Made by a program: the position numbers and the translations under genes
DNA from: an uncultured Actinomycetes bacterium
Lineage (GTDB): Bacteria; Actinomycetota; Actinomycetes; S36-B12; CAIYMF01
Assembly: GCA_963843975.1 (NCBI GenBank)
Contig: CAWJMG010000003.1
Span: 1,410,001 to 1,442,000 of the forward strand
Direction: 5' to 3'
DNA length: 32,000 nt
The notes under the pieces: model-generated
What the model was told of the DNA's origin: nothing
The model's input: the letters and a program-made list of their open reading frames with translations, nothing else
The model's database searches: none
In this document: in pieces, positions 2,604 through 19,640 of the stretch
How positions within the stretch are numbered: position 1 is the stretch's first letter
Layout of the letters: every line of letters starts with the position of its first letter

Positions 2604-4214
2604 CTACCTGCCGCGGCGCAGGAGCCCGAGCGCTCCGGCGTCGTCGACCACGACGGCGAGGTCGCCGTCCTCGTCGGTGCGGCCGACCACCGCCCCGACA
2701 TCCCGATAGGCCGCGACCGTCTCGGGGGCGGGGTGGCCGTAGTCGTTGTCGACCCCGACGCCGATCAGGGCGATACGCGGCCGGAACGATGTCGCCCAGG
2801 CCGCCGACTGGTAGCGCGAGCCGTGGTGCGGCACCTTCACGACGTCGACGGGCGTCACCGGCGTCTGCGCGAGCACGGCGTCCTGCGCCGCCTCCTCGAG
2901 GTCGCCGCCGAGGGCGAAGGTGACGCCGTCGACCTCGGCGAGCACGGTCACGCTCGCGTTGTTGGCGTCGGAGCCCTCGCCGCGGATGAACCGCGTCGGC
3001 CACACCACCCGCAGGTGGACCGACCCGATCCGCCACTCGTCGCCGGGGGACGCCGTCCGCATCGACGCACCGGAGTCCGTCAGCCAACGCAGCACGCGCC
3101 GCTCCTCCCCCGGCGGGTCGTCGAGCGGTGACGTGACCACGACGCCCACGGCCCGGCCGCGCAGGACGCCGGGCAGCCCCTCGACGTGGTCGGCGTGGAA
3201 GTGCGTGAGGAGCACGAGCGGCACGCGGGTGACCCCGAGCCGCCGCAGGCACCGGTCGACCAGGGACGGATCGGGCCCCGTGTCGACGACGACCGCCTCG
3301 CTCGTCGCCACCCGGAGGACGAGGGAGTCGCCCTGGCCGACGTCGCACATCACGGCCCGCCAGCCCGACGGCGGCCAGGCGAGAGCACCGGGCACGACGA
3401 CGGGGACGGGCGCCACCGCGACGACCACGCAGGCCACGGCGCCGACGACCAGCGAGGTGCGCAGCACCGGCCCGCCGTGGCGCCGGGCGAGCCACGCACC
3501 CGTCGCCGCCAGCGCGGTGACGACGGTGATCGACGCCGCCCCGGCCCAGCCCGACGGCCACGGCAGGCTGCCCGCGAGCACCGAGGTCTGGCGGGCGACG
3601 ATCGCGATCCACGAGACCGCCCACCCAGCAGGCAACGCGACGACCGAGGCCGCCGGTGCCGACACCAGTCCCACGACCGCTGCGACCAGTCCGAGGGACG
3701 TCGCCGGCGCGACCGCGGGCTCGGCGAGAAGGTTGGCGACGACGCCGCCCACCGGCACTCCCCCGCCGATGCCGACCACGAGCGGTGCGACCGCGAGCTG
3801 GGCAGCCGCGCTCACCACCACGAGCGCACCGACCGCCCCGCGAGTGCGCTGCCACCACGTGCCTTCCACGAGCCCCGGCCCGGCCCGGGCGGCCACGAGG
3901 ATCAGCGCGGCCGTGGCGGCCACCGACATCGCGAAGCCGACCGAGAGGGCGAGGAACGGGTCGAGCAGCACGAGTGAGGCGACGGCGACGGCCAGCGCGT
4001 CGAGCGGCTTCACCCGCAGGTCGAGCAGCAGCACCACCAGGACGACCGCGGCCATCGCGGCGGCCCGGAGCACCGACGGCTGCGGCCGCGCGACCACGAC
4101 GTACGCCGCCACCGCCAGACCCACGACGAGCAGCTGCGCGACGCCGCGCCGCAGGCCCACGAGGCGGCCGAGCACGACGACGACGGCGACCACCACTGCG
4201 ACGTTGCCACCGCT
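2604..4214 (-). CDS. comEC: ComEC/Rec2 C-terminal fragment (membrane competence domain remainder plus metallo-beta-lactamase domain), separated from its 5' part by the inserted element
   Basis: The minus frame is open from 4226 and reads SGGNVAVVVAVVVVLGRL..., followed by many TM helices. It continues ...MCDVGQGDSLVL...LLTHFHADHVEGL...VVKVPHHGSRYQ... (MBL fold). The first in-frame start is GTG 4196 and there is no plausible promoter or RBS. It continues the frame of the fragment at 13913-14707 across the shared core. Confidence 0.9.
   Translation of the reverse strand, partial: SGGNVAVVVAVVVVLGRLVGLRRGVAQLLVVGLAVAAYVVVARPQPSVLRAAAMAAVVLVVLLLDLRVKPLDALAVAVASLVLLDPFLALSVGFAMSVAATAALILVAARAGPGLVEGTWWQRTRGAVGALVVVSAAAQLAVAPLVVGIGGGVPVGGVVANLLAEPAVAPATSLGLVAAVVGLVSAPAASVVALPAGWAVSWIAIVARQTSVLAGSLPWPSGWAGAASITVVTALAATGAWLARRHGGPVLRTSLVVGAVACVVVAVAPVPVVVPGALAWPPSGWRAVMCDVGQGDSLVLRVATSEAVVVDTGPDPSLVDRCLRRLGVTRVPLVLLTHFHADHVEGLPGVLRGRAVGVVVTSPLDDPPGEERRVLRWLTDSGASMRTASPGDEWRIGSVHLRVVWPTRFIRGEGSDANNASVTVLAEVDGVTFALGGDLEEAAQDAVLAQTPVTPVDVVKVPHHGSRYQSAAWATSFRPRIALIGVGVDNDYGHPAPETVAAYRDVGAVVGRTDEDGDLAVVVDDAGALGLLRRGR
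4204..4214. repeat. attL core (TTGCCACCGCT)
   Basis: The same 11-mer, with one A/G difference, recurs at 13926-13936. On the minus strand both copies encode the S-G-G-N codons of comEC. Confidence 0.8.
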
Positions 4215-4233
4215 AATTGTGCATAGTTAGGGT
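4204..4233 (+). promoter_or_regulatory. Candidate integrase promoter overlapping the att core (TTGCCA, 18 nt spacer, TAGGGT)
   Basis: The -35-like TTGCCA (4204-4209) is the left half of the att core. The TANNNT-type -10, TAGGGT, is at 4228-4233. The ATG at 4240 lies 7 nt after the -10, which suggests a leaderless transcript. Confidence 0.35.
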
Positions 4234-4239
4234 GTGCAG

Positions 4240-5628
4240 ATGCGAGCCATCACCTACGCCAGGAAGTCGAACACCGACACGCGCAACCCCGGCAAGAGTG
4301 TCCGAGACCAGCAGCGCGAGGCACGCACCGAAGTCGAACGCCGCGGCTGGACCCTCATCGACGAGCTGAAGGACGACGGCATCGGAGCAAGCCGCCACAG
4401 CCGTAAGCGCGAGCGCCCCGGCTTCGACGCGCTTCTCGACCTCATCGCCACGCGCAAGGTCGATGCAGTGGTGCTGCCTGAGCAGAGCCGCGCCACCCGT
4501 CGCTTATCGATCCTCGGCGCCCTGCTCGAGGAGTGCGCCGACGCCGGAGTGCTCCTCGTGATCGACGGCCGCGAGATGGATCCGAGCAACGCCGGTGACC
4601 TCCTACAGCTCGGCGTGCAAGGCGCCGTCGACGTCGCCGAGGTCGAGCGCACCCGCGAGCGGGTCGAGCGCGGGATGCGCGGATCAGCCGCAGCAGGCAG
4701 GCCCCACGGGCGCCCCGTGTTCGGGTACACGCGCATCTACTCGCCCTCGAGCCGCGAGCTGCTGCGCGTGGACGTCCAGCCGCAGCAGGCGGCAATCGTG
4801 CGTCGCATCGCGGAACACCTCCTCACCGGTGGCACGGTCCGCAGCATCACCCTGGCGCTGAACGCCGAGGGCGTCCCGAATCCGACCGGTCGCGCGTGGC
4901 ACCCGTCGAGCGTGCGACGCATGATCGTGTCGCCGACGTACGCCGGGCGCAGGGTGCACCGCGGGGCAGTCGTCGGCGACGGTGACTGGCCCGCGATCCT
5001 CACCCTCGACGAGCACCTGGCGCTCGTTGCGGCCATGACCGCGCCCGGACGAGCCTCCAAGCGCCCCAGCGTGCGCAAGCACTTGTGCAGCGGGCTCGCG
5101 CGGTGCAGCGAGTGCGAAGGCCCTCTGCGCGTCGTCCTCGACCGTCGACGCCCGACCTACGCCTGCGCGACACCGGGGTGCTACCGAGTGACCGTCGGGA
5201 AGGAGTCTCTGGACGCCTTCGTGAGCGAGGCCCTCCGGGCTCGGCTCGCGCGTCCGGACGTCGTCGCCGCGCTCGGCCGCGGAGACATCGCAACGGTGCA
5301 GGCCGCACGGGACGCGCTCGACGACCTCGACGCACGCCGCGCGGACGTGCTCGCGATGCTCGCGGACGGCACGCTGCGCCGCGCCGAGGCAACCCCGATC
5401 CTGAAGAGCATCGACGCCGAGCGTCGCGACGCCGACGCGCGCGCCCTCGCCGCCGTCGGCTCCCGCGAGCTCCTCGATCTCGACGTCAACAGGCTCGACG
5501 CTCCGACGCTCGCGCGCGTCGCCCCCCTTGTCCTGTCACGTGTCGTCGTCCGACGATCGGCGCAGGTTCGTGGGCACAACAGGTTCGATGCGTCGCGTGT
5601 GACGTTCGAATGGATCGGCGCGGACTGA
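4240..5628 (+). CDS. Large serine recombinase (integrase)
   Basis: The N-terminus MRAITYARKSNTD carries the YxRxS catalytic-serine context of the resolvase domain. A recombinase domain and a Cys-rich zinc ribbon follow (CSGLARCSECEGPL...YACATPGCY), then a coiled-coil tail. An alternative GTG start is at 4234. Confidence 0.9.
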   Translation: MRAITYARKSNTDTRNPGKSVRDQQREARTEVERRGWTLIDELKDDGIGASRHSRKRERPGFDALLDLIATRKVDAVVLPEQSRATRRLSILGALLEECADAGVLLVIDGREMDPSNAGDLLQLGVQGAVDVAEVERTRERVERGMRGSAAAGRPHGRPVFGYTRIYSPSSRELLRVDVQPQQAAIVRRIAEHLLTGGTVRSITLALNAEGVPNPTGRAWHPSSVRRMIVSPTYAGRRVHRGAVVGDGDWPAILTLDEHLALVAAMTAPGRASKRPSVRKHLCSGLARCSECEGPLRVVLDRRRPTYACATPGCYRVTVGKESLDAFVSEALRARLARPDVVAALGRGDIATVQAARDALDDLDARRADVLAMLADGTLRRAEATPILKSIDAERRDADARALAAVGSRELLDLDVNRLDAPTLARVAPLVLSRVVVRRSAQVRGHNRFDASRVTFEWIGAD

Positions 5629-5642
5629 CGACACGCCGTCGC

Positions 5643-5672
5643 TTGACTTGCCCGGTTTGCGCGACCTACGTT
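5643..5672 (+). promoter_or_regulatory. Candidate sigma-70-type promoter for the xis-rep operon (TTGACT, 18 nt spacer, TACGTT)
   Basis: The hexamers were read directly at 5643-5648 and 5667-5672. They lie in the 265-nt gap after int and upstream of the co-directional coupled genes 5894-7496. Confidence 0.35.
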
Positions 5673-5818
5673 CGTAACAGGCGATGACCAGCAGCCGCAA
5701 GCCGAAGCGAGCCTTTCGGCGGTTGATGTAGCCAACCAGATGCAGTTGCACGTCGGGAAAGACCATCCCGCCCGGACAGGCTCGGGGCGCTTCAGCGGAT
5801 GGCGAGCACCCGGCAGTC

Positions 5819-5876
5819 GAATCCCTCTGGATTCCGCACTGCCTGGCGATCTCAACCGACAAGCGAAGCGGAATCC
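5819..5876. promoter_or_regulatory. GAATCC/GGATTC inverted-repeat set (possible operator or 5'-UTR structure) upstream of the Xis-like gene
   Basis: GAATCC at 5819-5824 and GGATTC at 5829-5834 form a 6-bp hairpin. TGGATTCCGC (5828-5837) is inverted relative to GCGGAATCC (5868-5876). CCCCGTTCGGGG follows immediately before the RBS. Confidence 0.3.
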
Positions 5877-5893
5877 CCGTTCGGGGAGACCGA

Positions 5894-6073
5894 ATGCCGC
5901 TCCTACCCTCGATCCAAGATCACACGCTCTACGTTCGCGACGTCGTGGAGCTCCTCAACGTCGACGCCACAACGGTTCGCCGCTGGGTCGCCGACGGGAA
6001 GCTGCCCGCCGTACGCGTTGGCAATGTGCTGCGATTCCGCGCAGTAGACGTCGACGCTCTCGTGAAGCGATGA
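5894..6073 (+). CDS. Excisionase-family helix-turn-helix DNA-binding protein (candidate recombination directionality factor)
   Basis: This 59-aa ORF is below the ORF-track cutoff. It reads MPLLPSIQDHTLYVRDVVELLNVDATTVRRWVADGKLPAVRVGNVLRFRAVDVDALVKR, the classic Xis/MerR-type HTH_17 pattern. The RBS GGGGAG lies 6 nt upstream, and its stop overlaps the next start (ATGA). Confidence 0.8.
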   Translation: MPLLPSIQDHTLYVRDVVELLNVDATTVRRWVADGKLPAVRVGNVLRFRAVDVDALVKR

Positions 6074-6189
6074 CTGCCCTCACACCGGACGCCCTCGAGT
6101 TGGCGCGCCAGGCTGCCGACGAGGCCCCGGAGCTCAGCGCTGCGCAGGCCGCGCGAGTCGTCGCCGTGCTCTGCGAGTCATCGAGGTGA
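6070..6189 (+). CDS. Small hypothetical protein (39 aa), translationally coupled on both sides
   Basis: MTALTPDALELARQAADEAPELSAAQAARVVAVLCESSR. Its ATG overlaps the xis stop, and its TGA overlaps the GTG of the next gene (GTGA). No family was recognised. Confidence 0.45.
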   Translation: MTALTPDALELARQAADEAPELSAAQAARVVAVLCESSR

Positions 6190-7496
6190 GCGACTCAACG
6201 CCCATCCCCCGCGACGAGCTTGAGGTCGCCGTGGCGTGCCTGTCGGAGTCGGACCTGCGGGCACTCATGGGCGACGCCGTACGCGCAAACCTCCTCGAGC
6301 TACGGCGAGACCCGCGGGGCCTTGTCGGAGTCGGCACCTACAGCGAGCGCGCCGACAGGCGGAAGGCCGCGGAGGCCGTCGCCGACGAGCGCCGTCGCCA
6401 GCAGGCCCGCGAACAGGTCCGAAGGGAACGCGCAGACGCCGCCTTCAGGGCTCCAAGTGCCCTCGAAGTCCTCTCGAACGCCCCCGATCACGAGACCGAC
6501 GACGTGCACCGCGTCGAAGGCTTCCTGCCCCTCGACGGAAGCGCGACCGTCATCGGCGCGGCTAAGGTTGGAAAGTCCACGCTGCTCGTCGAACTCGTGC
6601 GCTGCCTCGTCGACGGCGAGCCGTTCCTTGACGCCTACCCGGTGAAGCAGGTTGACGACGGCCGCGTGGTCGTGCTCAACCTCGAGGTGAGCCCGCGCAC
6701 CTACCGGCGGTGGCTGCGCCGTGCCGGCATCCGCAACGCCCACGCGGTCGGGGTGCTGCACATGCGCGGTACGGGTTTCGAGATCGAGTCGCCCGCAGCC
6801 CGAGCCTGGCTGGTCGACCAGCTCCGGCAGGCGTCAGCCCGCGTTCTCATCGTTGACCCGTTCTCGGCCATTTACCGGGGGCAGTCCGACGTCGACAACC
6901 GGGAGGTGCGCGGTTGGCTCGACGAGCTGTCAGCCGTGGCGCTCGAGGCCGGGGTGCGGGAGGTGGTGCTCGGCGTGCACGCGGGGCGGGACAAGAGCCG
7001 CAGCCGCGGCGCGTCCGCGCTCGACGACTGGCCGGACGCCGTGTGGACGATCACCCGCGACGCGAGCACCAACCTGCGCTCAATCGCCGTCGACGGCCGC
7101 CACGACCGCAAGGCCGGCGACGTCGTGCTCACGTTCGACGAGTCGACCCACAGAGTCGCCCTCGACGTCCGCGCCTCCGGGATCACACCAGCACAGCGGA
7201 AGGCGCACGAGGCCGACCGACGGCGCGCAGAGCGCTACAGCGCCGACCGTGCCGACGAGATGCAGCTGCTCCACCTGGTCAGAGAGCGCCCCGGCATGTC
7301 GGCGCGGGAGCTGCGCTCCGAGCTTCGTTCGCGGCTAAGTAGTGGCGCGGAGCGTGCTGGGCAGGCGATTGACCGCTGCGTGGTTGAAGGCGACGTGGCG
7401 AAGGTGAAGGTGGGAAGGTCGACGGTCCTCGAGCTGACTGACAAGGGTCGTGCCCGGATCGAGCTCCCTTCGCTCATCGCAGGGGCGGCGCAGTGA
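6186..7496 (+). CDS. RecA-like P-loop ATPase (AAA_25 / RepA-type) with C-terminal winged-helix; probable replication initiator/helicase of the element
   Basis: Walker A is GAAKVGKST and the Walker B-like strand is ARVLIVDPFSAIY. The layout resembles plasmid RepA/DnaB-like AAA_25 proteins common on integrative elements. The C-terminus LLHLVRERPGMSARELRSEL...VKVGRSTVLELTDKGRARI looks like a wHTH. Confidence 0.7.
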   Translation: MSDSTPIPRDELEVAVACLSESDLRALMGDAVRANLLELRRDPRGLVGVGTYSERADRRKAAEAVADERRRQQAREQVRRERADAAFRAPSALEVLSNAPDHETDDVHRVEGFLPLDGSATVIGAAKVGKSTLLVELVRCLVDGEPFLDAYPVKQVDDGRVVVLNLEVSPRTYRRWLRRAGIRNAHAVGVLHMRGTGFEIESPAARAWLVDQLRQASARVLIVDPFSAIYRGQSDVDNREVRGWLDELSAVALEAGVREVVLGVHAGRDKSRSRGASALDDWPDAVWTITRDASTNLRSIAVDGRHDRKAGDVVLTFDESTHRVALDVRASGITPAQRKAHEADRRRAERYSADRADEMQLLHLVRERPGMSARELRSELRSRLSSGAERAGQAIDRCVVEGDVAKVKVGRSTVLELTDKGRARIELPSLIAGAAQ

Positions 7497-7501
7497 TCTG
7501 C

Positions 7502-7684
7502 GTGCCTTGGCAGTCGACCGCGCCGGCGAGGTCTGGGCCGCCTCGGCCGCATCGCCATGACTGTGCCTCGGTGCCTTCGGTGCCTCCCTATAAGCGTGCG
7601 AGGCACGCATATCGACGTGCGTCCGTGCCTTGGTGCCTCGGTGGCTTCCAGCGGGACCAAGTCCCACCGAGGCACACAAGGCAC
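7502..7684. repeat. Iteron-like cluster of GTGCCT(Y)GG motifs (candidate origin of replication)
   Basis: Direct GTGCCT copies lie at 7502, 7563, 7571, 7580, 7625 and 7633, with variant GTGGCT at 7641. Inverted AGGCAC copies lie at 7601, 7670 and 7679. Two tandem sets with 8-9 nt spacing flank a more AT-rich stretch (CTATAAGCG...CATATCGAC). The cluster starts immediately 3' of the ATPase gene. Confidence 0.55.
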
Positions 7685-7725
7685 ACCGGAAGACCAACGA
7701 ACCCACCCACACTGAGGAGCGAACG

Positions 7726-7998
7726 ATGACCGACTTCTACGACGGCCCTACTCGCGAGCAGGCGGAGGCCGCGCACGCCAATCTCGCCGCCCAGCTCATC
7801 GTCGCCTGGGATGCCGCACGACACCTCGCCGACGACCACGAGGCGCGTCCGATGCGCGACCTCCTCGAGACTGCGCCGGCAGACGCTGCTTGGGCGCTCG
7901 GCGTGCTGCTCGGACACGCGATCGAGTACGGCGCGGACCGCGCCCTGGACGAGGCCCTCGAGAGTCTGCGGCTCGACGTCGAGGCGGTGGCCTCGTGA
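7726..7998 (+). CDS. Hypothetical protein (90 aa)
   Basis: The ATG at 7726 is preceded by the RBS GAGGAG. The product is acidic and helical (MTDFYDGPTREQAEAAHANLAAQLIVAWD...). Its stop overlaps the next start (GTGA). No family was recognised. Confidence 0.6.
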   Translation: MTDFYDGPTREQAEAAHANLAAQLIVAWDAARHLADDHEARPMRDLLETAPADAAWALGVLLGHAIEYGADRALDEALESLRLDVEAVAS

Positions 7999-8315
7999 CG
8001 CCGCCTCGCGCCGCTCAGAGCGCCCAACGGCCCGCCTGGGTTCCTCCTGTTCCGAGCCCCACCTCCGTGGAGCCTGATGCCCTCTTCGCCCTCCTGCGGC
8101 GCCTCGTCGAGGCGAGCGAGCGGCAGGCGGAGGCGGCGGAACGGCACACCTACCTGCTCGCGGCAATCTTGACCGCGATCGACGACGGCACCGCAGCCAG
8201 GATCGAGGGTCGGGCATCGGTGGCCGTGCGGGATGCCGAGGACACGCGCTTCAACCTCGGCCGCCTCACCGACCAAGCCGAGCGGCTCGCCGCCGTCGAC
8301 CGGGAAGATGGGTAG
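7995..8315 (+). CDS. Hypothetical protein (106 aa), Pro-rich N-terminus plus predicted coiled coil
   Basis: The GTG at 7995 is coupled to the upstream stop. The sequence ...LFALLRRLVEASERQAEAAERHTYLLAAILTAIDDG... looks coiled-coil. Its stop overlaps the start of the connector-like gene by 1 nt. No family was recognised. Confidence 0.55.
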   Translation: MTPPRAAQSAQRPAWVPPVPSPTSVEPDALFALLRRLVEASERQAEAAERHTYLLAAILTAIDDGTAARIEGRASVAVRDAEDTRFNLGRLTDQAERLAAVDREDG

Positions 8316-8782
8316 TGGCGCCGCCCTACGCCGAGGTCGGCGATCTCGAGACACGGTTGGGTCGCGAGCTCCGCGACACCGAGCTTGATCGCGCAGGGAC
8401 GCTCCTCGAGACGGTCTCCGTCTACATCGACCTTCACCTCGAAACCTGCGTCGACACGATCGCCACCGACTACCCGCAGGTGCTCGTCGACGTCGTGTGC
8501 GGCGCAGTGCTGCGTGAGCTCGCTCGCGACCCCAGCCGTGACCCCACCGCCGTCAGCGTGCAGCTCGGCGACACCGCGGTGGCCTACCGCTATGACAAGC
8601 CTCGGGGCTCCGCATTGGGGCCGCTCACCGAGGACGAGGTCGCCACCCTGCGACGGGCGTGTGGGCAGCAGTCGACGCGAGGCGTCTCAAGCGTCCCACT
8701 GGCGTCGACGTTGCAAGCGATGCCTAACGTCGAGGACGACGAGACTGCTGGCTGGCGGCCGATGTACCCCAACCTCCCCTAA
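8315..8782 (+). CDS. Phage head-tail connector/adaptor-like protein (Gp19/Gp15/Gp42-type)
   Basis: The N-terminus (V)APPYAEVGDLETRLGRELRDTELDRAGTLLETVSVYIDLHL matches the characteristic opening of actinophage head-to-tail adaptor proteins (YATVEDLEARLGR-LTD-E--RA--LL-DAS). This is recognition-based only. Confidence 0.5.
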   Translation: MAPPYAEVGDLETRLGRELRDTELDRAGTLLETVSVYIDLHLETCVDTIATDYPQVLVDVVCGAVLRELARDPSRDPTAVSVQLGDTAVAYRYDKPRGSALGPLTEDEVATLRRACGQQSTRGVSSVPLASTLQAMPNVEDDETAGWRPMYPNLP

Positions 8783-8789
8783 CCACCGT

Positions 8790-8824
8790 GGCCCGGCGTG
8801 CACACGAGCGCGGCACGCCGGGCC
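8790..8824 (+). terminator. Stem-loop after the connector-like gene
   Basis: A perfect 12-bp stem, GGCCCGGCGTGC / GCACGCCGGGCC, encloses an 11-nt loop and begins 8 nt after the stop. There is no U-tract, which is common in high-GC actinobacteria. Confidence 0.5.
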
Positions 8825-9074
8825 GCGGTCCTGCCTTACTCCCTCGCAGGCTCGGGTTAACCTCGAAGCGGACAACGGATCCGGTGAGCTGGCCGACACG
8901 GCGAGCATCGGTGACGGGCTGGCAGCCGACAAGGTGCAGCACCCACGTGAGGCGCGGACACCGCGCGGCATGCCCACAGCGTCGGGGTGCCGCAGCGAGC
9001 CGGCAGCGCTCGTGACACACCACCGATTCTCCGGGTGTGCACGCGCGCGCCCGCATCCCACTTCAGGAGTACCC

Positions 9075-9881
9075 ATGTCCGTCACCCGTGACAGCTTCAA
9101 CGGGGAGCCGTTCCCCACCGCCGTCGTGCAGAAGATCCTCAACGACTCCCTCGAGGACACCCCTCTGCTCGGCAACATCACCGTCGAGCGCACCAACCGC
9201 GAGAGCAAGACCTTCCTCGCCGCCGACCCGTCCGGCTTCGACTGGCGAGCCGAGGGCGCCGAGCTCCCAACCGTCGCGCTCAACGACGACTCCGCCGTGT
9301 TCGCGCCCGCGAAGCTCGCCGGCCTCATCGAGATCACCAACGAGGCGATCGACGACAGCGAGTTCAGCATCACCGGCGCCATCACCAACGCGATCCGCGA
9401 CTCGATGCTCGTCAAGGCCGAGCGCGACACCCTCTACGCGCCCGCCGTCCCGAACGCCGCGGCACCCACGCCCGTCGTGCCCGGACTCGGCGCGGCCGTT
9501 TCCGGCGACTCGCTGCGGCTCGCTGCTATCGCCGCGTGCGGCGAGATCCTCGGCGCAGGTGGCAGGCCCGACCGCATCTTCATCTCCCCTGACCTGTGGG
9601 TGGCGGAGATGCAGGGCCGCGCGCTCGACGGTGGCAGCCTCGTCGACCCATTCACGGACCTCGGCCTGCGCACCGTCATCGTGCCCAACCTCGACGCCGA
9701 GGACGGCATCGTGGCGGACAGCAGCCGTGTCTACGCGGTGTGGCGCAAGGACGCGTCGATCGAGATGAGCGACACCCCTGCGTGGAGCCGCGACGCGTGG
9801 TCGTTCCGCGTGAAGGCCCGTCTGGTGCTCGCCATCCCGCAGGTCGCGAAGGCCGCACGGCTGCTCGCCGTCACCCCCTAG
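9075..9881 (+). CDS. HK97-family phage major capsid protein (short form, 268 aa)
   Basis: The ATG at 9075 follows the RBS AGGAG. The pattern ...VVQKILNDSLEDTPLLGNITVERTNRESKTFLAADPSGFDWRAEGAELPTVALNDDSAVFAPAKLAGLIEITNEAIDDSEFSITGAITNAIRDSMLVKAERDTLY...IFISPDLW...VIVPNL...VYAVWRKDASIEMS...RVKARL matches the Phage_capsid (HK97) sequence pattern. Confidence 0.8.
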   Translation: MSVTRDSFNGEPFPTAVVQKILNDSLEDTPLLGNITVERTNRESKTFLAADPSGFDWRAEGAELPTVALNDDSAVFAPAKLAGLIEITNEAIDDSEFSITGAITNAIRDSMLVKAERDTLYAPAVPNAAAPTPVVPGLGAAVSGDSLRLAAIAACGEILGAGGRPDRIFISPDLWVAEMQGRALDGGSLVDPFTDLGLRTVIVPNLDAEDGIVADSSRVYAVWRKDASIEMSDTPAWSRDAWSFRVKARLVLAIPQVAKAARLLAVTP

Positions 9882-10074
9882 CAAGGCAGCTCGGCTCGTG
9901 TCCTGGTCGTCACGAGGCGAGAGCTCGAGGCCGCACGGTCAGCGGCGCGACGAGAGCCCGCGGACGCTTCAGGGACGTCGCGGCGGGCAACCCATGACAA
10001 TGCTTGGTGCGAAGGATGACCGTCGGTACGGTCGGCGGGTGGCAACTCATGCGCAGTCGGATTCAGACTCGAAT

Positions 10075-10893
10075 ATGAACCGCGTCTCAGGGCTGACCGA
10101 CTGGTTGCGCAGTAACGCGCCGTGGCTTGCTGGCCTTGTCTGGGCGGCAGTGGTCGCCGTTCGAGTTGCCATTCTTGCCGACGGGGACTGGGGCAAGGCA
10201 CAGGCAATTGCTCAGGTTGCGGGGCTCGTTGGCCTCGCCCTGTCTACGGCAGTCGCTGTGCTCCCGTTGTTCCTGGCCATGGTGGCCTTTCTTTGCCTGC
10301 TCTGGTTCCGTCGCCGCCGCTTGCTGTCGATGCAGCTTTTGACTGCGGTGCTACTCGTTTCCCTCCTCGTCTTGGCCATGCCAGCGATACAAGCCGTGAT
10401 CTTGTCGCTAACGGCCTGTGGAGCGGGGCTCATGTGGTGGGCCGTCAAGCGGGAAGACAAAGCCGGGCCCGGAACGGAGTCGGAGTCAACGTCAGAGGAG
10501 GCTGACGAATCGGAGGCAATGGGATCGCCGGCACAGGACCCGCCGCTGTCCCCGGAGATCGCTGTGCTGAGCGACCCGGTTGGACGCCTGCTCTGGTACA
10601 CCCTGACGGCGACGTTTGTGGTGGTGACCTTCTCGTTCCTTGCTCCGTGGGGGGCCACAGAAAGAATCACGTTCACAGATGCCAAAGGGAAGCAGACCTT
10701 AGCCGTGGGCTACGTGATCCCGAGCAGCGACTTCTACCTCGTGGTCCCGAAGTCAGATGATCAAATGTTCTACGTGCGCACGGACAATATCGTTCAACGA
10801 GACCTCTGCAGCACAGCCAAGTCAGGTCGATCCTTGGAATTGTCAATCGTGGCCCTTGTGGATGGCCGGACGCCGCTGCCGACCTGCGATTGA
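10075..10893 (+). CDS. Multi-pass membrane protein of unknown function (about 6 TM helices, an acidic linker, and a ~70-aa C-terminal soluble domain)
   Basis: Part of ORF 9898..10893. MNRVSGLTDWLRSNAPWLAGLVWAAVVAV... is the most natural N-terminus; alternative ATGs lie at 9994 and 10000. GC is visibly lower and A/T third positions are more frequent than in the flanks. No family was recognised. Confidence 0.6.
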   Translation: MNRVSGLTDWLRSNAPWLAGLVWAAVVAVRVAILADGDWGKAQAIAQVAGLVGLALSTAVAVLPLFLAMVAFLCLLWFRRRRLLSMQLLTAVLLVSLLVLAMPAIQAVILSLTACGAGLMWWAVKREDKAGPGTESESTSEEADESEAMGSPAQDPPLSPEIAVLSDPVGRLLWYTLTATFVVVTFSFLAPWGATERITFTDAKGKQTLAVGYVIPSSDFYLVVPKSDDQMFYVRTDNIVQRDLCSTAKSGRSLELSIVALVDGRTPLPTCD

Positions 10894-10958
10894 GGCACGG
10901 GGGGGGGTCTCCCGAGCTTCCACCTGCTCCCCGCAACGGGGTCTCTGCACGTAGTTGG

Positions 10959-11729
10959 CTACGGGTTTTGACCTTTGGCGGCCGCGCTCGGCCCTTCGGC
11001 CAACTCGGCTGATGGTTTCAAGGCCGACACCTCTGCCATGAGCTGCTCAATCAACTCACGCTGCGCCCGCATCTCGGTCAGCAGCTCGTCCTCACCCTGC
11101 CGCGTTCGCTGTACGAACCATGCCGCTACCGCTGCGGTGATGACGCCGAGCATGGAGATACCGACCAGCATCAAGGCGAAGGCAACCACCCTTCCCACTG
11201 GCGTGACGGGAAAGACGTCGCCGTACCCAACGGTGGTGACCGTCGCACCTGCCCACCACAACGCATCACCGATCGTTGAAACGTGAGTGCCCGGGGCGTC
11301 TCGCTCGGTGTCGAGCATCGCCAGCGCAGCAACGAGCAGTAGAAGCGCGGTGGCGGCGACGGCAGCTGCGACGGTGCGCCCGATCGCGAAGCGACCTCCG
11401 CGCGAGATTACGTAGTTTGCGGCAGTGAACACGCGCAGAACGCGCAGCGGGCGCAGCATCGGCAGCGCCACCAGCAGGAAGTCGATGGGGTGCCGCATGA
11501 GGTACTGACCTGGGCTGCCAGAGAGATACGCGCGCAAACCCAAGTCACACACGAACACGACCCAGACGGCGAAACTGAGCAACTCGTCGCCCAATGCCAG
11601 ACCGGGCGGAAGCGAGGGCCAGACGATAGGCAGGGCGTACAGAACAAGGAATGCGCCGGCGAGGATCAACAAGGGGATCGTTGTTCGGTGCTCATAGCGA
11701 TCGAGACGTTCGCGAGCAGGCGACGACAT
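10959..11729 (-). CDS. Voltage-gated-type (6TM) potassium channel
   Basis: The selectivity filter reads TTVGYGD. An S4-like helix has Arg at every third residue (LRPLRVLRVFTAANYVISRGGR), and the C-terminus is a coiled coil. The start is taken at MSSPARERLDRYEH (ATG 11729, with RBS GTGGAG upstream) rather than the ORF-track start at 11828. Confidence 0.85.
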   Translation of the reverse strand: MSSPARERLDRYEHRTTIPLLILAGAFLVLYALPIVWPSLPPGLALGDELLSFAVWVVFVCDLGLRAYLSGSPGQYLMRHPIDFLLVALPMLRPLRVLRVFTAANYVISRGGRFAIGRTVAAAVAATALLLLVAALAMLDTERDAPGTHVSTIGDALWWAGATVTTVGYGDVFPVTPVGRVVAFALMLVGISMLGVITAAVAAWFVQRTRQGEDELLTEMRAQRELIEQLMAEVSALKPSAELAEGPSAAAKGQNP

Positions 11730-11872
11730 CTCCACATCCGGACCGTACCCAGCATCACCCAGGCGGGACCCGCGCCACGCTGGGTACGTGCTCCGGCAAC
11801 GGGCGCCCCATCTCGCTACGGTGGCCACATCATCGCCGCGAGAAGGCGGCTAACGGGGAACGGGGCACTTCC

Positions 11873-12754
11873 ATGAAACGTGGCTTGACGCTTGGTGTCG
11901 CAGCTCTGGCGACTTGCCTGAGTGCGATGACCATTGCCGGGCCGGCCGCGCAGGCCACGCCGACCCAGCCCACGGCCGCGATCGCGGTCACGCCGCGGGC
12001 ACTCTTGGCGAAGTTGACGGTCGCTGCCGAGGTGGGCTTCTCCTCTTACGCTCGGGAGAAGTTCCAGTACCCGACCGACGCCAACTCCGACTGCCAGAAC
12101 ACCCGCGCCGAGGTTCTCTTGCAGGAGACCCGAACGAAGGCTTCCTTCACCTCGTCGTCGCGCTGCACGGTGCAGTACGGAACCTGGCTCTCCTATTACG
12201 ACGGGCTCACGATCAAGAAGGCCTCGAGTCTTCAGATCGATCACTTGGTCCCGCTCTACGAGGCATGGACGTCCGGCGCTAGGAAGTGGAATGTCGCCAC
12301 GCGCAAGGCGTATGCCAACGATCTCTCCTACGGACCCACGCTCGTCGCTGTCTCCGCGTCGACGAACCTGTCCAAGGGTTCGAAGGACCCCGCGCAGTGG
12401 CTACCATCTCTGGCCGCCGCCCGTTGCAAGTACGCGATCCAGTGGATGCAGGTGAAGTACCGGTGGCGCTTGACTGTTGACTCGTCTGAGAAGTCGGCCC
12501 TTCTGTCCATCCTGTCCGGCGCTTGCGGCACCAAGGCCGTTGTGCTGCCAGCACGCGCCTCGGTGAGCTACACCACCACGACGTCGGGTTCAGGCGGTAG
12601 CACTGGGGGCGGTGGCAACAGCAGCGGCACCGACCCGCGTTACGGGACTTGCACGGAGGCCAAGAGCCACGGCCTAGGGCCCTACTACCGAGGCACCGAT
12701 CCCGAGTACTACTGGTACAACGACCGAGACAACGACGGCATCGTCTGTGAATGA
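11873..12754 (+). CDS. Secreted HNH/DUF1524-type nuclease with C-terminal Excalibur calcium-binding domain
   Basis: The signal peptide is MKRGLTLGVAALATCLSAMTIAGPAAQA. The DUF1524 core reads LQIDHLVPLYEAWTSGARKW...ANDL...NLSKGSKDPAQWLP...CKY, followed by a Gly/Ser linker. The Excalibur motif is DPRYGTCTEAKSHGLGPYYRGTDPEYYWYNDRDNDGIVCE. Confidence 0.8.
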   Translation: MKRGLTLGVAALATCLSAMTIAGPAAQATPTQPTAAIAVTPRALLAKLTVAAEVGFSSYAREKFQYPTDANSDCQNTRAEVLLQETRTKASFTSSSRCTVQYGTWLSYYDGLTIKKASSLQIDHLVPLYEAWTSGARKWNVATRKAYANDLSYGPTLVAVSASTNLSKGSKDPAQWLPSLAAARCKYAIQWMQVKYRWRLTVDSSEKSALLSILSGACGTKAVVLPARASVSYTTTTSGSGGSTGGGGNSSGTDPRYGTCTEAKSHGLGPYYRGTDPEYYWYNDRDNDGIVCE

Positions 12755-12900
12755 AATGGCTGCCCGGTTGTCGTCCGTGTAGGTGACGGCTTGTGCAGGC
12801 CGGGCGCCCTCGACCCGATGATTGAAGGGTCGTTGACGGGCGCGTGGCAACGGCAGGGGAACGTCGACCAGCAGACGACCGACGGGCTGACTGTCTGGAC

Positions 12901-12958
12901 GACACCTACGACGAGTCGGCCCCGGCGAATTCGCCGGGGCCGACTCGTCGTAGGTGTC
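12901..12958. terminator. 58-bp perfect palindrome (29-bp arms, no loop, centred on GAATTC); probable bidirectional terminator between the convergent nuclease and doc genes
   Basis: GACACCTACGACGAGTCGGCCCCGGCGAA | TTCGCCGGGGCCGACTCGTCGTAGGTGTC was verified base by base. It overlaps the doc stop codon by 2 nt. Confidence 0.6.
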
Positions 12959-13388
12959 ACTCGTGCTGAGATCCCTCAGCCAGTCGGACATCGACCTCTT
13001 GGTCCTCCGTCAGGCCCGGGACGGCCACGCACGCCGACTTCAGCACCTCGGCGAGTTGCGTGACGTCCAGTTCATGTCGAGCCACGCGCATCGCCACCTC
13101 GTAGACCTCGGAGTCCGACAGCAGAAGGGTGTGAGCATTCAGCGCGAAGAAGACTCGGGTCGCCGTGAACGCCGTGCGCTTGTTTCCCTCCAAAAAGGGC
13201 TGATGGCCGTCGATGCTCGTCCACAAGGCCGCAGCCTTGTCATACAGGGTTGGGTACGCGTCCTCACCACCTACGGTCTGCTGCGGCCTGGCGACCGCCG
13301 CTTCGAGACCTGAGGGGTCTCGAAGCGGCGCATCGTCCAGATCGTCGTGAATGCGGACCACGTCAGCGACGGTGAGGTAGTGCGTCAT
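12957..13388 (-). CDS. doc: Fic/Doc-family toxin (death-on-curing type)
   Basis: The start is MTHYLTVADVVRIHDD (ATG 13388). The Doc signature HQPFLEGNKRTAF (HxFx[D/E]GNKR) is present. The product is 143 aa and lies 19 nt downstream of a small RHH-like gene. Confidence 0.85.
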   Translation of the reverse strand: MTHYLTVADVVRIHDDLDDAPLRDPSGLEAAVARPQQTVGGEDAYPTLYDKAAALWTSIDGHQPFLEGNKRTAFTATRVFFALNAHTLLLSDSEVYEVAMRVARHELDVTQLAEVLKSACVAVPGLTEDQEVDVRLAEGSQHE

Positions 13389-13407
13389 CGTCTTGCTCCA
13401 GTTGGCT

Positions 13408-13644
13408 CTAGCCCCTGAGCTTGTCGAGGGCGACCACGTGGCGCTCCTGCGTCTCCGTGACCACAGCTCCGATGAGTTCCGCGCGGCCGGGACCATCAAG
13501 AAACTCGCGGAGCAGGTTCGTGATGGTCTCGTTCGCGCTACGGCGCGTGTGGAACGAGTACGTGCGGAGTGCCTCGTGCAGATCGGGATCAAGCCGAACG
13601 GTTACGGCTTGACGCTGGATGTCGTGCGTGTGGACTTCGTTCAT
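13408..13644 (-). CDS. Antitoxin (ribbon-helix-helix / Phd-like) partnered with Doc
   Basis: The ATG at 13644 is preceded by the RBS GGAGGA. The 78-aa product reads MNEVHTHDIQRQAVTVRLDPDLHEALRTYSFHTRRSANETITNLLREFL..., a typical RHH beta-strand followed by helices. It sits directly upstream of doc. Confidence 0.7.
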   Translation of the reverse strand: MNEVHTHDIQRQAVTVRLDPDLHEALRTYSFHTRRSANETITNLLREFLDGPGRAELIGAVVTETQERHVVALDKLRG

Positions 13645-13671
13645 TGCCGTCCTCCGGTGGTCGAGGGGAGG

Positions 13672-13722
13672 ACGACGCAGCGGGGAAGACTGCTGTGTCA
13701 CTGGAATCGTTGGCTGCGTCGT
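13672..13722. promoter_or_regulatory. Inverted repeat ACGACGCAGC / GCTGCGTCGT upstream of the antitoxin gene (possible TA operator)
   Basis: The 10-bp arms lie at 13672-13681 and 13713-13722, 28-78 nt upstream of the antitoxin start codon on the minus strand. Confidence 0.3.
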
Positions 13723-13775
13723 TTGTGAGAGGTTTGGGATACCAAGCGAGGATGCTTTTTGGCGACGAGTTGCTG

Positions 13776-13827
13776 GCTAGGTTTCTGATTGCTCGCGGTT
13801 TGCTAGGTCTCTGAAGTTCTCGCGGTT
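13776..13827. repeat. Tandem imperfect ~25-bp direct repeat in the AT-richer right arm of the element
   Basis: GCTAGGTTTCTGATTGCTCGCGGTT (13776-13800) is followed, after one intervening base (13801), by GCTAGGTCTCTGAAGTTCTCGCGGTT (13802-13827). Confidence 0.5.
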
Positions 13828-13912
13828 GTTGGAGTTGGCCACCTCCGTGACGCCATGATGGCATGCTATCAAGATCATTACAACCCAATCTCGAAGTTCT
13901 CCCCTGCCCCTC

Positions 13913-14707
13913 CTAGCAATGCGCATTGCCGCCGCTCACCGCCGTCAGGTGGGCGAGGCCCGAGTCGCGCATGGCCTGTGCGAGCTCGGGGCTCTGCGCG
14001 GACGTGTCGCCGACGACCAGGCCGGGCAGGAGGCCGCGGACGTCCGACGACCGGTCTGAGACGGATGCCCGCAGCGACTCGCGGACGGCACCCGCACCGA
14101 CCTGGACCGGCGGCGGGCCGCGCACGACCTCCACCGTGTCGGCCATGAGCGTGGCAGCTCGGCCACGACGTGGATCCGCGGGAAGGAGCCGGCCGGTGGC
14201 GTGCAGTCCGGTGCCGGGCAGCAGCGAGGCGACGCCTGCGGACGCGTCTCCCGATGTGATCACCTGCACCGGCAGGTCGAGCTCGTACGTCTCGCCCGTA
14301 ACGGTGGCCGTCAGCAGCGCGGCCTCGAACGTCCACGCGTCGTCCATGCGTCGCGAGCCCGACGTACGGCCGTCGCGCACGCGCGGGTCGGACGTGGTCA
14401 CCAGCTCGGCCCGGACGAACGAGTGCGCGCCCGCCGCTGCCGCGAGCGGGCCGTCGAGCAGCGGCGCGACCCGCCACGCGGAGACGGACGCCGACAGGAG
14501 GACGAGCAGCCCGACGGCCGTGACGTCGACGGCTGTGACGGACGTGCGGCGGGAGGCCAGGGCGAGGGCTGCCGCGACGACGAGCGCGAGCGCCATCGCG
14601 AGCCCTGCGGGCGGGAGCGGGATCGACGGCGCCAGCCCGACCACAGCCGCGGCCGAGCCCCAGACGGCGACAGCCGCGATCGAGGCCCTCGTGGGTCGCG
14701 CGGTCAC
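13913..14707 (-). CDS. comEC: ComEC/Rec2 N-terminal fragment (truncated by the insertion; the last 3 codons, AHC, and the stop are element-derived)
   Basis: The GTG at 14707 overlaps the comEA stop (GTGA). TM helices and an OB-like region follow. The fragment ends ...LPGLVVGDTSAQSPELAQAMRDSGLAHLTAVSGGN-AHC*, so it breaks inside the conserved HL-AVSG-N competence-domain motif. Confidence 0.88.
   Translation of the reverse strand: MTARPTRASIAAVAVWGSAAAVVGLAPSIPLPPAGLAMALALVVAAALALASRRTSVTAVDVTAVGLLVLLSASVSAWRVAPLLDGPLAAAAGAHSFVRAELVTTSDPRVRDGRTSGSRRMDDAWTFEAALLTATVTGETYELDLPVQVITSGDASAGVASLLPGTGLHATGRLLPADPRRGRAATLMADTVEVVRGPPPVQVGAGAVRESLRASVSDRSSDVRGLLPGLVVGDTSAQSPELAQAMRDSGLAHLTAVSGGNAHC
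13926..13936. repeat. attR core (TTGCCGCCGCT)
   Basis: This is the second copy of the 11-nt core. The element-side sequence just before it, GCAATGCGCATTGC, is itself a 14-bp palindrome. Confidence 0.8.
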
Positions 14708-15447
14708 ACGGTCACCAGCGGCGCGAGCCGCTCGAAGGTGCGGTCGCCGATCCCCGACACCTCGCGCAGCTGGTCGACCGAGGCGAAGCGGCCGTTCTGC
14801 GTGCGCCAGTCGATGATGCGGCCGGCCATCACCGGACCCACCCCGGGCAGCGTGTCGAGGTCGTCGACGGTCGCGGTGTTGAGGTTCACGGGCCCGGCCG
14901 GTGCTCCGCTCCCGGAGCCGCTCGCTACCGGCGGCGCGGTCGCCGCGTCGTGCGCGACGTCGACCTGCTCGCCGTCCACGAGCAGGCGGGCGAGGTTGAG
15001 GCCGCCCGAGCTGCCGCCTTTGCTCAGCCCGCCCGCGGCCTCGATCGCATCGGCCACCCGGGATCCGGGCGGCAGCCGCACCAGCCCGGGACGCCGCACC
15101 TCCCCCACCACGTGCACGACGAGATCGGGCTGCGCGCTCGGCGAGGCCGAGCTGCCCGGCCGCCCGGCGAGCGAGCCCGACACCACCGGCATCGGCGTGC
15201 CGGGCACGAGCGCGACCGGAGTGGGGGCACCGCCGGTGACCGTACGCAGCAGCAGCCACGCGGCGAGCGCCGTGACGCCGACGGCGACGAGCACCGGGCG
15301 CGCCGCCATAGGCAGCACCCAGCGAGGTGCGCCCGGGGACGGACCGGTGCCGTCGTCGTCGTGCGGCGCTGCCCCGCCCGCGGCGAGCGCTCGGAGCCGC
15401 TCACGGACTGCGTCCGGGTCGGGGCGGGGTCGAGGGCGGGGCAGCAC
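14704..15447 (-). CDS. comEA: ComEA-like DNA receptor (SLBB plus helix-hairpin-helix)
   Basis: An N-terminal TM helix is followed by VVHVVGEVRRPGLVRLPPGSRVADAIEAAGG (SLBB). The C-terminus reads VNLNTATVDDLDTLPGVGPVMAGRIIDWRTQNGRFASVDQLREVSGIGDRTFERL (HhH). The start is uncertain; an internal ATG at 15309 is possible. Confidence 0.85.
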   Translation of the reverse strand: MLPRPRPRPDPDAVRERLRALAAGGAAPHDDDGTGPSPGAPRWVLPMAARPVLVAVGVTALAAWLLLRTVTGGAPTPVALVPGTPMPVVSGSLAGRPGSSASPSAQPDLVVHVVGEVRRPGLVRLPPGSRVADAIEAAGGLSKGGSSGGLNLARLLVDGEQVDVAHDAATAPPVASGSGSGAPAGPVNLNTATVDDLDTLPGVGPVMAGRIIDWRTQNGRFASVDQLREVSGIGDRTFERLAPLVTV

Positions 15448-15540
15448 GCCCGATGCTCGGCCGCGTCCTGCGACCTCCTCCCACGCGGCGCCTTACCGCC
15501 TGGGGACGACACGGCCCCGTCTCTGCCTGGGGACGGCCCG

Positions 15541-16161
15541 TCAGGAGCGGGTGACGACCGCCTGCAGGTTCTTCCGATGACGTACGACGACGAGCACGGT
15601 CAGCAGCGCGGCGAAGGCGATGTCGCTGCTGGGGTCGTCGAACCACAGCGCGGCGGGCACGAGCATCAGGCAGCCCGCGACCGAGGCCAGGCCGATGCGG
15701 CGCGTGACCGCCCACGCGCCGGCGAACACCACCAGCACGGGGATCGCCCAGAGCGGCTGCACCGCGAGGATCGCACCGAACGACGTGGCGACCCCCTTGC
15801 CACCCTTGCCGCGCAGCAGCGGCGAGGTCACGTGCCCGAGGACGGCGGCGAGGCCCGCGACGAGCGCGGGCACGTGGAGGCCGAGGGCCTCGAACCCGAC
15901 CACCACGACGTAGCCCTTGAGGATGTCGACGACGCCGACCAGGACGCCGACCTTCCAGCCGAACGCGCGGCCGGCGTTGGTCGCGCCCGGGTTGCCTGAG
16001 CCGACCGCTCGCAGGTCCGTGCTCCGCAGCCGCGCGATGCCCGCGGCCGGGTTGAGCATGCCGACGGCGTACCCGATCACAGCGGCACCGACGACGAGCA
16101 GCACCTGCACGGCGATGCTGCTGCCGGCCCAGGTGACGGCGAGACCGACGTACGCCTGCAT
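15541..16161 (-). CDS. plsY: Glycerol-3-phosphate acyltransferase PlsY
   Basis: The GSGNPGATNAGRAFG motif is present, along with multiple TM helices. The ATG at 16161 overlaps the degV-family stop (TGATG). The ORF-track start at 16182 is an alternative. Confidence 0.85.
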   Translation of the reverse strand: MQAYVGLAVTWAGSSIAVQVLLVVGAAVIGYAVGMLNPAAGIARLRSTDLRAVGSGNPGATNAGRAFGWKVGVLVGVVDILKGYVVVVGFEALGLHVPALVAGLAAVLGHVTSPLLRGKGGKGVATSFGAILAVQPLWAIPVLVVFAGAWAVTRRIGLASVAGCLMLVPAALWFDDPSSDIAFAALLTVLVVVRHRKNLQAVVTRS

Positions 16162-17010: not shown

Positions 17011-17052
17011 AGCGCCGACCCTACCCACTGCCACCCGGTCGCTGAGACTGAT

Positions 17053-17089
17053 CGATCCGTCGCTTCCCGGTGCAGGAAGCGACGGATCG
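17053..17089 (-). terminator. Stem-loop downstream of leuS
   Basis: A 15-bp perfect stem, CGATCCGTCGCTTCC / GGAAGCGACGGATCG, encloses a 7-nt loop. It lies about 22 nt after the leuS stop. Confidence 0.65.
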
Positions 17090-17110
17090 GTCAGTACGAG
17101 CGGGGTGGGG

Positions 17111-19603
<2,493 letters not shown>

Positions 19604-19640
19604 CGATGTCTCTCGTCAGCTCGTCATGGCCCCGGACAAG

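Follow-up and report, generated by a model that had tools for sequence, protein, structure and literature searches.

The comEC gene, which encodes the channel for DNA uptake, is split in a 32,000-nucleotide stretch of contig CAWJMG010000003.1 (hereafter, the window). We consider it likely, with a probability of about 0.8, that the gene was interrupted by a 9.7 kb phage-derived mobile element, which integrated by means of its own serine recombinase and in a manner that is exactly reversible. The element would occupy positions 4215-13925, and its host appears to be a Sporichthyaceae-like actinobacterium with Longivirga as the closest named relative. Deleting the element at the short cores that flank it restores the gene exactly: the resulting open reading frame (ORF) of 793 amino acids (aa) is colinear with intact orthologues and matches the DNA of empty sites in related genomes.

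The interrupted comEC gene

The original prediction located the break on the minus strand, between positions 4214 and 13926, and every coordinate that it gave holds (Table 1). The minus-strand ORF of the N-terminal fragment, which runs to 13913, ends with ...RDSGLAHLTAVSGGN-AHC-stop. The C-terminal fragment lies in a minus-strand frame that is open from 4226, reads (LCTI)SGGNVAVVVAVVVV... at its start (a second excerpt of the same start is (LCTI)SGGNVAVVVAVVVVLGRL...) and continues to a stop at 2604. Both junctions carry the 11-nucleotide (nt) core TTGCC[A/G]CCGCT, as had been claimed, and its variable base merely distinguishes the codons GGT and GGC, both of which stand for glycine. With at most one mismatch allowed, the 11-mer occurs on the forward strand of the window only at the two junctions, and on the minus strand there is one unrelated match, at 12608. 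The base composition changes at the same points: the G+C content is 75-78% in the flanks and 62-72% inside, with the step located exactly at both junctions. Moreover, a contig from an independent assembly (L001) has the same attL junction and the same gene order.

When 4215-13936 is removed and 2604-4214 is virtually joined to 13937-14707, the two parts are in frame, as predicted, and encode a protein of 793 aa, whose GTG start codon (14707) overlaps the stop codon of comEA. In the rejoined protein the Competence domain (PF03772) was detected at residues 230-494 (E-value = 6e-46), spanning the joint at residues 257-261, and the Lactamase_B domain (PF00753) at residues 548-731. The presence of both domains in one polypeptide and the 81-93% identity to annotated ComEC proteins bear out its identification as ComEC. 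The gene is directly preceded by comEA and followed by holA.

Searches with the rejoined protein retrieved full-length ComEC proteins of 756-794 aa at 93, 86, 83, 82 and 81% identity, the last of them from Longivirga aurantiaca of the family Sporichthyaceae. We aligned 17 intact orthologues, ranging from 93% to about 43% identity, with Streptomyces being the most distant, and none of them has a gap or an insertion at the joint LAHLTAVSGGN-VAVVVAVVV. In addition, the three closest genomes (L003, L004 and L005) have an uninterrupted comEC, that is, an empty site, within a neighborhood that they share with the window, lepA-rpsT-holA-comEC-comEA-plsY-degV-leuS. In L003 and L005 the site is identical to the predicted attB core, GTGAGCGGCGGCAACGTCGC, and the core of L004, GTGAGTGGCGGCAAC, is one synonymous base off, having the serine codon AGT for AGC. 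Orthologues that are not colinear across the joint, or the same two fragments in genomes without an element, had been named in the original prediction as findings that would speak against it; this refutation fails, because both comparisons came out in its favor.

The split gene shows no sign of decay, given that its ratio of nonsynonymous to synonymous substitution rates (dN/dS) against the nearest intact orthologue is 0.135 (0.20 for the N-terminal and 0.10 for the C-terminal part) and that no stops or frameshifts were found in its 793 codons. Between pairs of intact comEC genes, dN/dS is 0.15-0.25. Since the two halves are undamaged, the insertion should be either recent or reversible.

Public annotation pipelines call the C-terminal fragment from a GTG at 4196, at the junction, as a 530-aa 'ComEC' product, which clusters with true ComEC fragments. 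For this reason the split gene is easily mis-scored as present and intact. More generally, when the two halves of such a gene are called as separate genes, a strain may be wrongly scored as either having or lacking comEC.

The recombinase, its attachment sites and its relatives

The first gene of the element encodes a large serine recombinase, which starts with the ATG at 4240, 26 nt past the core, in agreement with the original prediction. Its assignment is confirmed by matches above the Pfam cut-offs to the Resolvase (PF00239, E-value = 6e-19) and Recombinase (PF07508, E-value = 1.7e-14) domains. The zinc ribbon Zn_ribbon_recom (PF13408) scores 22.7 bits, under the cut-off of 25.3, and Cys289, Cys292, Cys309 and Cys314 are invariant in alignments of the recombinase relatives. 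Likewise, Ser10, Arg8 and the SR..R motif (S83-R84..R87) are conserved in alignments A1 and A2. Among the PHROG families the best description is integrase (phrog_95, E-value = 8e-78), and the NCBIfam model of XisF is matched partially, with an E-value of 1e-22 that is far under the equivalog cut-off.

A small gene starting 265 nt past the recombinase stop had been proposed to encode an excisionase-type helix-turn-helix (HTH) protein, and the TIGR01764 'excise' model agrees, scoring 43 bits at a cut-off of 28.8. The protein is about 40% identical to gp36 Xis of mycobacteriophages L5 and D29. Small Xis-like directionality factors are known to serve the serine integrases of phiRv1 and phiJoe (PMC5311408), and the 59-aa protein is the obvious candidate for a factor that would direct excision of the element.

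Exchange between the two junctions is predicted to give the attP junction ...GCAATGCGCATTGCC[A/G]CCGCTAATTGTGCATAG... and the attB junction ...GCGACGTTGCC[A/G]CCGCTCACCGCCGTC.... The imperfect inverted repeat that had been noticed in attP does exist (10/13); as a dyad, however, it matches at 12/22 positions, which is merely the 95th percentile of shuffled sequence. The best dyad centre in attP is CC at 4210-4211, which on the gene strand is the GG of the first glycine codon, and the same analysis of a related element (L011, see below) again places the centre at the GG of the glycine codon in V-S-G. The crossover of phiJoe takes place at 5'-GG (PMC5311408). If CC 4210-4211 were the crossover, the host attB would have carried GGT. 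At the variable codon the three empty-site relatives all have GGC, and GGT accounts for eight of the 79 glycine codons of the window comEC; from the GGC of all three relatives, the crossover would be placed in TTGCC, at 4204-4208. A scan of the element for promoters and terminators found nothing above chance.

Based on these data, we propose that the insertion resulted from attP x attB recombination, which would be catalyzed by the large serine recombinase of the element itself. The target would be the DNA encoding A-V-S-G-x-N, a conserved motif of ComEC situated where the membrane Competence domain starts, and a crossover of 2 bp inside the common core would lead to neither duplication nor deletion. 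The gene would thereby be cut into pieces of 261 and 532 codons, and exact reversal would return the full 793-codon gene. In the integrated state no one-piece ComEC would be made, and DNA uptake through ComEC is likely to be abolished, because the break falls about 30 residues into the membrane Competence domain. Excision would require the recombinase together with a directionality factor, for which role the adjacent HTH protein is a candidate.

The recombinase is rare, with one identical entry in the databases and the nearest other relative at 49% identity (L002). Known phage integrases, such as those of Gordonia phage CarolAnn and Mycobacterium phages Gengar and OkiRoe, are 36-38% identical to it. 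To collect relatives, species-representative genomes and metagenome contigs were scanned with a 5-sequence alignment, which gave 25 and 65 loci, respectively. The flanks of these loci were searched with ComEC, ComEA and T2SSE queries, and the junctions were then read.

In one set of loci, comEC is broken at the same codons as in the window, and a recombinase of 31-41% identity abuts the ComEC fragment. These AVSGxN-site loci come from Pseudosporangium (L006), Actinoplanes (L007), an Acidimicrobiales metagenome-assembled genome (L008), Jatrophihabitans (L009), Aquihabitans (L010, of which L036 is apparently the same sequence) and Nocardioides (L011), as well as from metagenomes (L031, L034, L035, L045, L053 and L095). 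Altogether, about a dozen related integrases reside at the AVSGxN site of ComEC, in several actinobacterial orders and in the class Acidimicrobiia. The clade is found at this site in many actinobacteria; comEC was therefore not hit by accident, and its choice is a specificity inherited within the recombinase lineage. In the Nocardioides locus both junctions could be read: the core is GGTGTC[C/G]GGCACCAA, and the insert in comEC is 10.2 kb long. This island (9825-20037) encodes, in addition to the recombinase, a ribbon-helix-helix (RHH) protein, an HK97 capsid protein (E-value = 1e-44), an SPP1-type portal and a large terminase, and no tail genes were detected in it. Within Actinomycetota, the island is a good candidate for being a capsid-forming satellite.

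Other relatives are found in further genes of DNA uptake. In Rugosimonospora (L022), a member of the Micromonosporaceae (L026) and L066, comEC is broken at (V)PHHGS, in the metallo-beta-lactamase domain (ComEC C-terminal fragments at 7630-7904, 62-219 and 4-204, respectively). In L023 and L027 the recombinase gene comes right after a comEA cut about 12 codons before its end (9369-9932 and 9039-10001, respectively; HHH_3 profile position 53 of 65), and an intact comEC is located 8-10 kb downstream. A third gene contains the T2SSE domain. In L015 it is split by a 10.1 kb insert into pieces at 9186-9986 and 20134-20595, which match T2SSE profile positions 4-182 and 187-273. In L013 the insert is 8.3 kb long, between about 9960 and 18295, and the split gene is tadA/cpaF of a Tad/Flp pilus locus, because T2SSF and TadE genes come next. 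Breaks in the T2SSE gene, some at these positions and some elsewhere, were likewise seen in L017, L029, L056, L063, L076, L083 and L084. At least three different positions of tadA are used. Other relatives lie in or beside NIF3, MFS, acyltransferase, FtsK-like, AMP-binding and membrane-protein genes. In this sample of recombinase relatives, comEC, comEA and tadA are targeted far more often than other genes. The 49% identical relative (L002), on a 9 kb contig, lies among small ORFs, and no comEC-like core or window-like attP was found there. Six recombinase relatives were detected in viral contigs, none of them flanked by ComEC, ComEA or TadA sequence.

In a neighbor-joining tree, the AVSGxN recombinases belong to one large clade, together with a membrane-protein-gene group and several unclassified loci. 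Two further clades correspond to the PHHGS group and the comEA group, respectively, and the recombinases at tadA sites are spread over at least three separate groups, all of them outside the AVSGxN clade. The membrane-protein-gene group (L037-L042) is a tight one inside the comEC-site clade and abuts the 3' end of its gene (...LMAGAVAIWAQTWL...; 8030-8270 in L037), which looks like a target switch within that clade.

The orientation of insertion varies as well. At most loci of the AVSGxN clade the recombinase gene lies beside the N-terminal fragment and is co-directional with comEC, whereas in the window, L035 and L045 it lies beside the C-terminal fragment and is divergent from comEC. The contrast is seen when the window (4204-4262), L035 and L045 are set against L011 (9803-9880), and in the tree the two orientations are interleaved. 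In serine integrases the central dinucleotide alone sets polarity. Read in the orientation of the integrase gene, the dyad centres are CC in the window and GG in L011, and a central dinucleotide of attP that is flipped relative to the integrase gene would explain both orientations. A palindromic GC crossover, which would also allow insertion in both orientations, was considered and rejected, since the best dyad centres in the window and L011 are GG/CC; the flipped dinucleotide accounts for the orientations more simply.

Gene content of the element

The features of the element and of the flanking comEC fragments are listed in Table 1. The only gene common to the window element and the other elements is the recombinase (at a threshold of 1e-4), and several of the others carry phage head or replication genes. 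Among the window genes, the AAA_25 ATPase is probably the replication initiator of the element. The capsid protein scores well above the model cut-offs (43.5 bits for PF25209, cut-off 27; 45.4 bits for TIGR01554, cut-off 27.5), and tblastn found no match to it in 50,697 phage records. No ORF of the element has a Pfam, PHROG or NCBIfam match to portal, protease or terminase proteins, and no tail or lysis genes were detected. Taken together, the gene content makes the element look like a phage satellite or a reduced prophage. Its transfer would probably depend on a helper phage, unless the element is such a reduced prophage.

The G+C content is about 70% at 4.2-9.8 kb and 62-65% at 10-13.9 kb. 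The lower-G+C right half (9994-13701) consists of non-phage cargo: a membrane protein, a potassium-channel-like protein, a nuclease-like protein and Doc with an RHH protein. The RHH protein is probably the antitoxin of Doc, and the toxin with its antitoxin-like partner would stabilize the element. PADLOC found no defence systems apart from a weak PDC-S23 match to the Doc protein. The nuclease-like protein begins with a signal-peptide-like N-terminus, MKRGLTLGVAALATCLSAMTIAGPAAQA. If the nuclease is secreted, it deserves attention in an element that disables DNA uptake as well, given that degradation of extracellular DNA would lower transformation too. The palindrome, which separates the nuclease-like gene from the convergent doc gene, has no second copy in the window; it may serve to terminate transcription in both directions or to bind a protein.

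Table 1. Coordinates of the comEC fragments, attachment-site cores and element features in the window
Feature	Position	Strand	Remarks
comEC C-terminal fragment	2604..4214	-	Rest of Competence domain and metallo-beta-lactamase domain; SGGN codons onward
attL core TTGCCACCGCT	4204..4214		Gene strand AGC GGT GGC AA (S-G-G-N)
Large serine recombinase (integrase), 462 aa	4240..5628	+	Resolvase and Recombinase domains; catalytic Ser10 in YARKS
Excisionase-family HTH protein (HTH_17 / TIGR01764), 59 aa	5894..6073	+	Candidate recombination directionality factor
39-aa ORF	6070..6189	+	Function without assignment
AAA_25 (RepA/primase-helicase-like) ATPase, 436 aa	6186..7496	+	Weak primase-helicase PHROG matches
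Two small ORFs, 90 aa (7726-7998) and 82 aa (8067-8315)	7726..8315	+	No family match
Head-tail adaptor Ad1-like protein, 155 aa	8315..8782	+	phrog_137, E-value 4.5e-15; Phage_Gp19 weak
HK97-type major capsid protein, 268 aa	9075..9881	+	PF25209, phrog_10, TIGR01554
Predicted membrane protein, 299 aa	9994..10893	+	No family match; lower-G+C cargo half begins
Potassium-channel-like protein (Ion_trans_2)	10959..11729	-	
Probably secreted nuclease-like protein	11873..12754	+	GmrSD_C/DUF1524 domain, Excalibur Ca-binding domain
Perfect 58-nt palindrome (29 + 29, no spacer)	12901..12958		Separates the nuclease-like gene from doc
Doc/Fic-family toxin, 143 aa from MTHYLT	12957..13388	-	
Arc/ribbon-helix-helix-like protein, 78 aa	13408..13644	-	Upstream of doc
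comEC N-terminal fragment	13913..14707	-	261 comEC codons, then 3 element-encoded codons (AHC) and stop
attR core TTGCCGCCGCT	13926..13936		

Alternative explanations and known systems

Several observations weigh against a functional, precisely reversible element that inactivates comEC. The C-terminal comEC fragment has its own GTG start at 4196, and two half-proteins might be expressed. The element may be degenerate, as it lacks a recognizable portal and terminase, which are present in complete capsid-forming satellites, and its adaptor gene precedes the capsid gene, which is an atypical order. The dyad symmetry of attP, being statistically marginal, is weak evidence on its own, and the crossover dinucleotide is ambiguous between CC 4210-4211 and a position within TTGCC 4204-4208. 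Finally, the exact attP junction (33 nt, with R at the variable base) has no match in public viral and metagenome contigs, a null result that decides nothing, given how rarely the element occurs in databases.

Some of these observations would fit an immobile relic, left by a single past integration, which has since lost excision and transfer and has turned comEC into a pseudogene. The missing portal, terminase, tail and lysis genes, the atypical order of the structural genes, the lower G+C of the right half, suggestive of mosaic cargo, the rarity of the recombinase and the unmatched attP junction are all compatible with such a history. Nevertheless, we regard it as unlikely: the recombinase is full length, with none of its catalytic and zinc-ribbon residues lost, neither att core is damaged, and comEC halves that are undamaged over 793 codons, with a dN/dS resembling purifying selection, point to an insertion that is recent or still reversible. 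The same integrity of the comEC halves and of the recombinase and Xis-like genes, along with the in-frame, scarless insertion, its exact restoration and the absence of genes for lytic growth, would also be expected of a domesticated regulatory switch, in which controlled non-lytic excision ('active lysogeny' or a developmental element) turns competence on. This is quite improbable, and less likely than plain mobile-element behavior. Nothing ties excision to a host signal, and the site is empty in the closest relatives; the insertion is therefore not conserved in the lineage. Furthermore, the same site holds unrelated cargo elsewhere (capsid, portal and terminase in L011, primase and terminase in L006 and L007), which is the signature of a mobile-element attachment site and not of a switch fixed in the host.

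If comEC was invaded by a mobile element with heritable site specificity, as we favor, the question is what the specificity brings. The gene might be a neutral 'safe harbor', used because its AVSGxN DNA is conserved and the gene dispensable, with no benefit from blocking transformation. The attB motif is indeed almost invariant in ComEC across the phylum, serine integrases are commonly found in conserved coding sequence, as exemplified by phiJoe, whose site is close to a radical-SAM gene's end (PMC5311408), and some relatives of the recombinase sit in NIF3, MFS, acyltransferase, FtsK-like and AMP-binding genes. This explanation is possible, although we find it doubtful. Separate recombinase clades have hit four targets in DNA uptake: tadA, the 3' end of comEA, and comEC at either AVSGxN or PHHGS. 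In the actinobacterium Micrococcus luteus, transformation needs Tad pili (PMC4322843). Neutral choice is disfavored because such convergence on one pathway would not be expected from it and fits instead the chromosomal-curing argument, according to which an element that has integrated is less exposed to being deleted by homologous DNA from outside once transformation is disabled (PMC12637031). Accordingly, we tentatively suggest, at somewhat less than even odds, that a radiation of serine recombinases across Actinomycetota has repeatedly evolved specificity for DNA-uptake genes, amounting to a systematic, excision-reversible sabotage of transformation by satellites and prophages. The carriers would mostly be small (8-10 kb) phage-derived islands with head proteins but no tails. 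Our confidence goes no higher because the sample consists of relatives of a single integrase and is taken without phylogenetic correction.

That a serine-recombinase prophage can lie inside comEC is already known from Streptococcus; what deserves follow-up is that a single radiation of integrases recurrently targets DNA-uptake genes in actinobacteria. This offers a concrete setting in which to test whether integrated elements disable transformation because it could otherwise delete them. If true, this would be indirect evidence that transformation dependent on ComEC, ComEA and Tad threatens integrated elements widely in Actinomycetota, in which natural transformability has been shown for few species only. 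On the practical side, the attB of the clade is a near-universal coding motif (AVSGxN), which might enable broad-host-range integration in actinobacteria that are hard to manipulate, at the cost of losing comEC.

The original prediction drew parallels with the Listeria comK prophage, skin/sigK and SPbeta/spsM. The likeness in gene splitting stands, but the closest precedent, the Streptococcus comEC prophages, was missed. Streptococcal phi1207.3 (Tn1207.3), phi10394.4 and the defective Tn1207.1 reside in comEC/celB and encode serine-family recombinases, and their integration takes place at a GA dinucleotide and involves no long repeat (PMC4260502, PMC4288039). In pneumococcal lineages, disruption of comEC blocks transformation (PMC12637031). 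These elements share with that of the window a site-specific position inside the comEC coding sequence and a recombinase of the serine family. However, they are full prophages of 52-59 kb from Firmicutes, with resistance genes and three resolvase-type recombinases, whereas the window element is 9.7 kb long, satellite-like and from Actinomycetota. In literature searches combining comEC with serine integrases and prophages, in which subscription journals are thinly covered, no comEC-resident elements in actinobacteria were found.

In Listeria monocytogenes, the comK prophage (phi10403S/A118) is likewise a serine-integrase element that splits a competence gene, which precise excision restores (PMC7397523). 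There, regulated non-lytic excision and a benefit for the host have been shown experimentally; in addition, the Listeria target is the regulator comK and that of the window the channel gene comEC. SPbeta (spsM) and skin (sigK) of B. subtilis and the Anabaena fdxN element (XisF) resemble the window element in having a large serine recombinase and a split gene that can be rejoined exactly. Small accessory proteins, such as SprB and XisH/I, set directionality in these systems (PMC5311408). Excision of SPbeta, skin and fdxN is developmentally programmed in terminal cells, in contrast to the variable cargo and the empty sites in relatives that characterize the window element.

Among actinobacterial systems, phiRv1 of M. 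tuberculosis and phiJoe/SCO2603 of Streptomyces combine serine integrases with small (58-62 aa) directionality factors, and elements of this type, from a few kb to 40 kb, occupy a common attB in different hosts while their cargo varies (PMC5311408). The 5'-GG crossover of phiJoe (PMC5311408) is paralleled by the best dyad centre in the window, likewise GG/CC. The target of phiRv1 is REP13E12 repeats, and that of phiJoe is a radical-SAM gene at its 3' end, so that gene function may persist, whereas the window insertion is in the middle of a domain. Moreover, the directionality-factor gene of phiJoe lies across attP from int, whereas the HTH gene of the window is on the same side as the recombinase. 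The possibility that phiJoe/SCO2603 uses the same site as the window element, raised by a radical-SAM gene nearby, was rejected, since the phiJoe attB lies at the end of a SCO2606-like radical-SAM gene and not in comEC.

In overall organization, the window element resembles phage-inducible chromosomal islands of the capsid-forming type (cfPICIs; definition in PMC10085698). It shares with them the order of integrase, small HTH (AlpA/Xis-like) protein, replication ATPase, and capsid and head-tail connector genes, as well as the size of about 10 kb and the lack of tail and lysis genes. It differs in having no detectable portal, protease or terminase. As these packaging genes are missing, we do not file it as a cfPICI and describe it as satellite-like or a reduced prophage. 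Known cfPICIs come mostly from Proteobacteria and Firmicutes, and the elements described here add candidate phage satellites for Actinomycetota, where few have been described; among them, the Nocardioides island combines capsid, portal and large terminase within 10.2 kb at the same comEC site.

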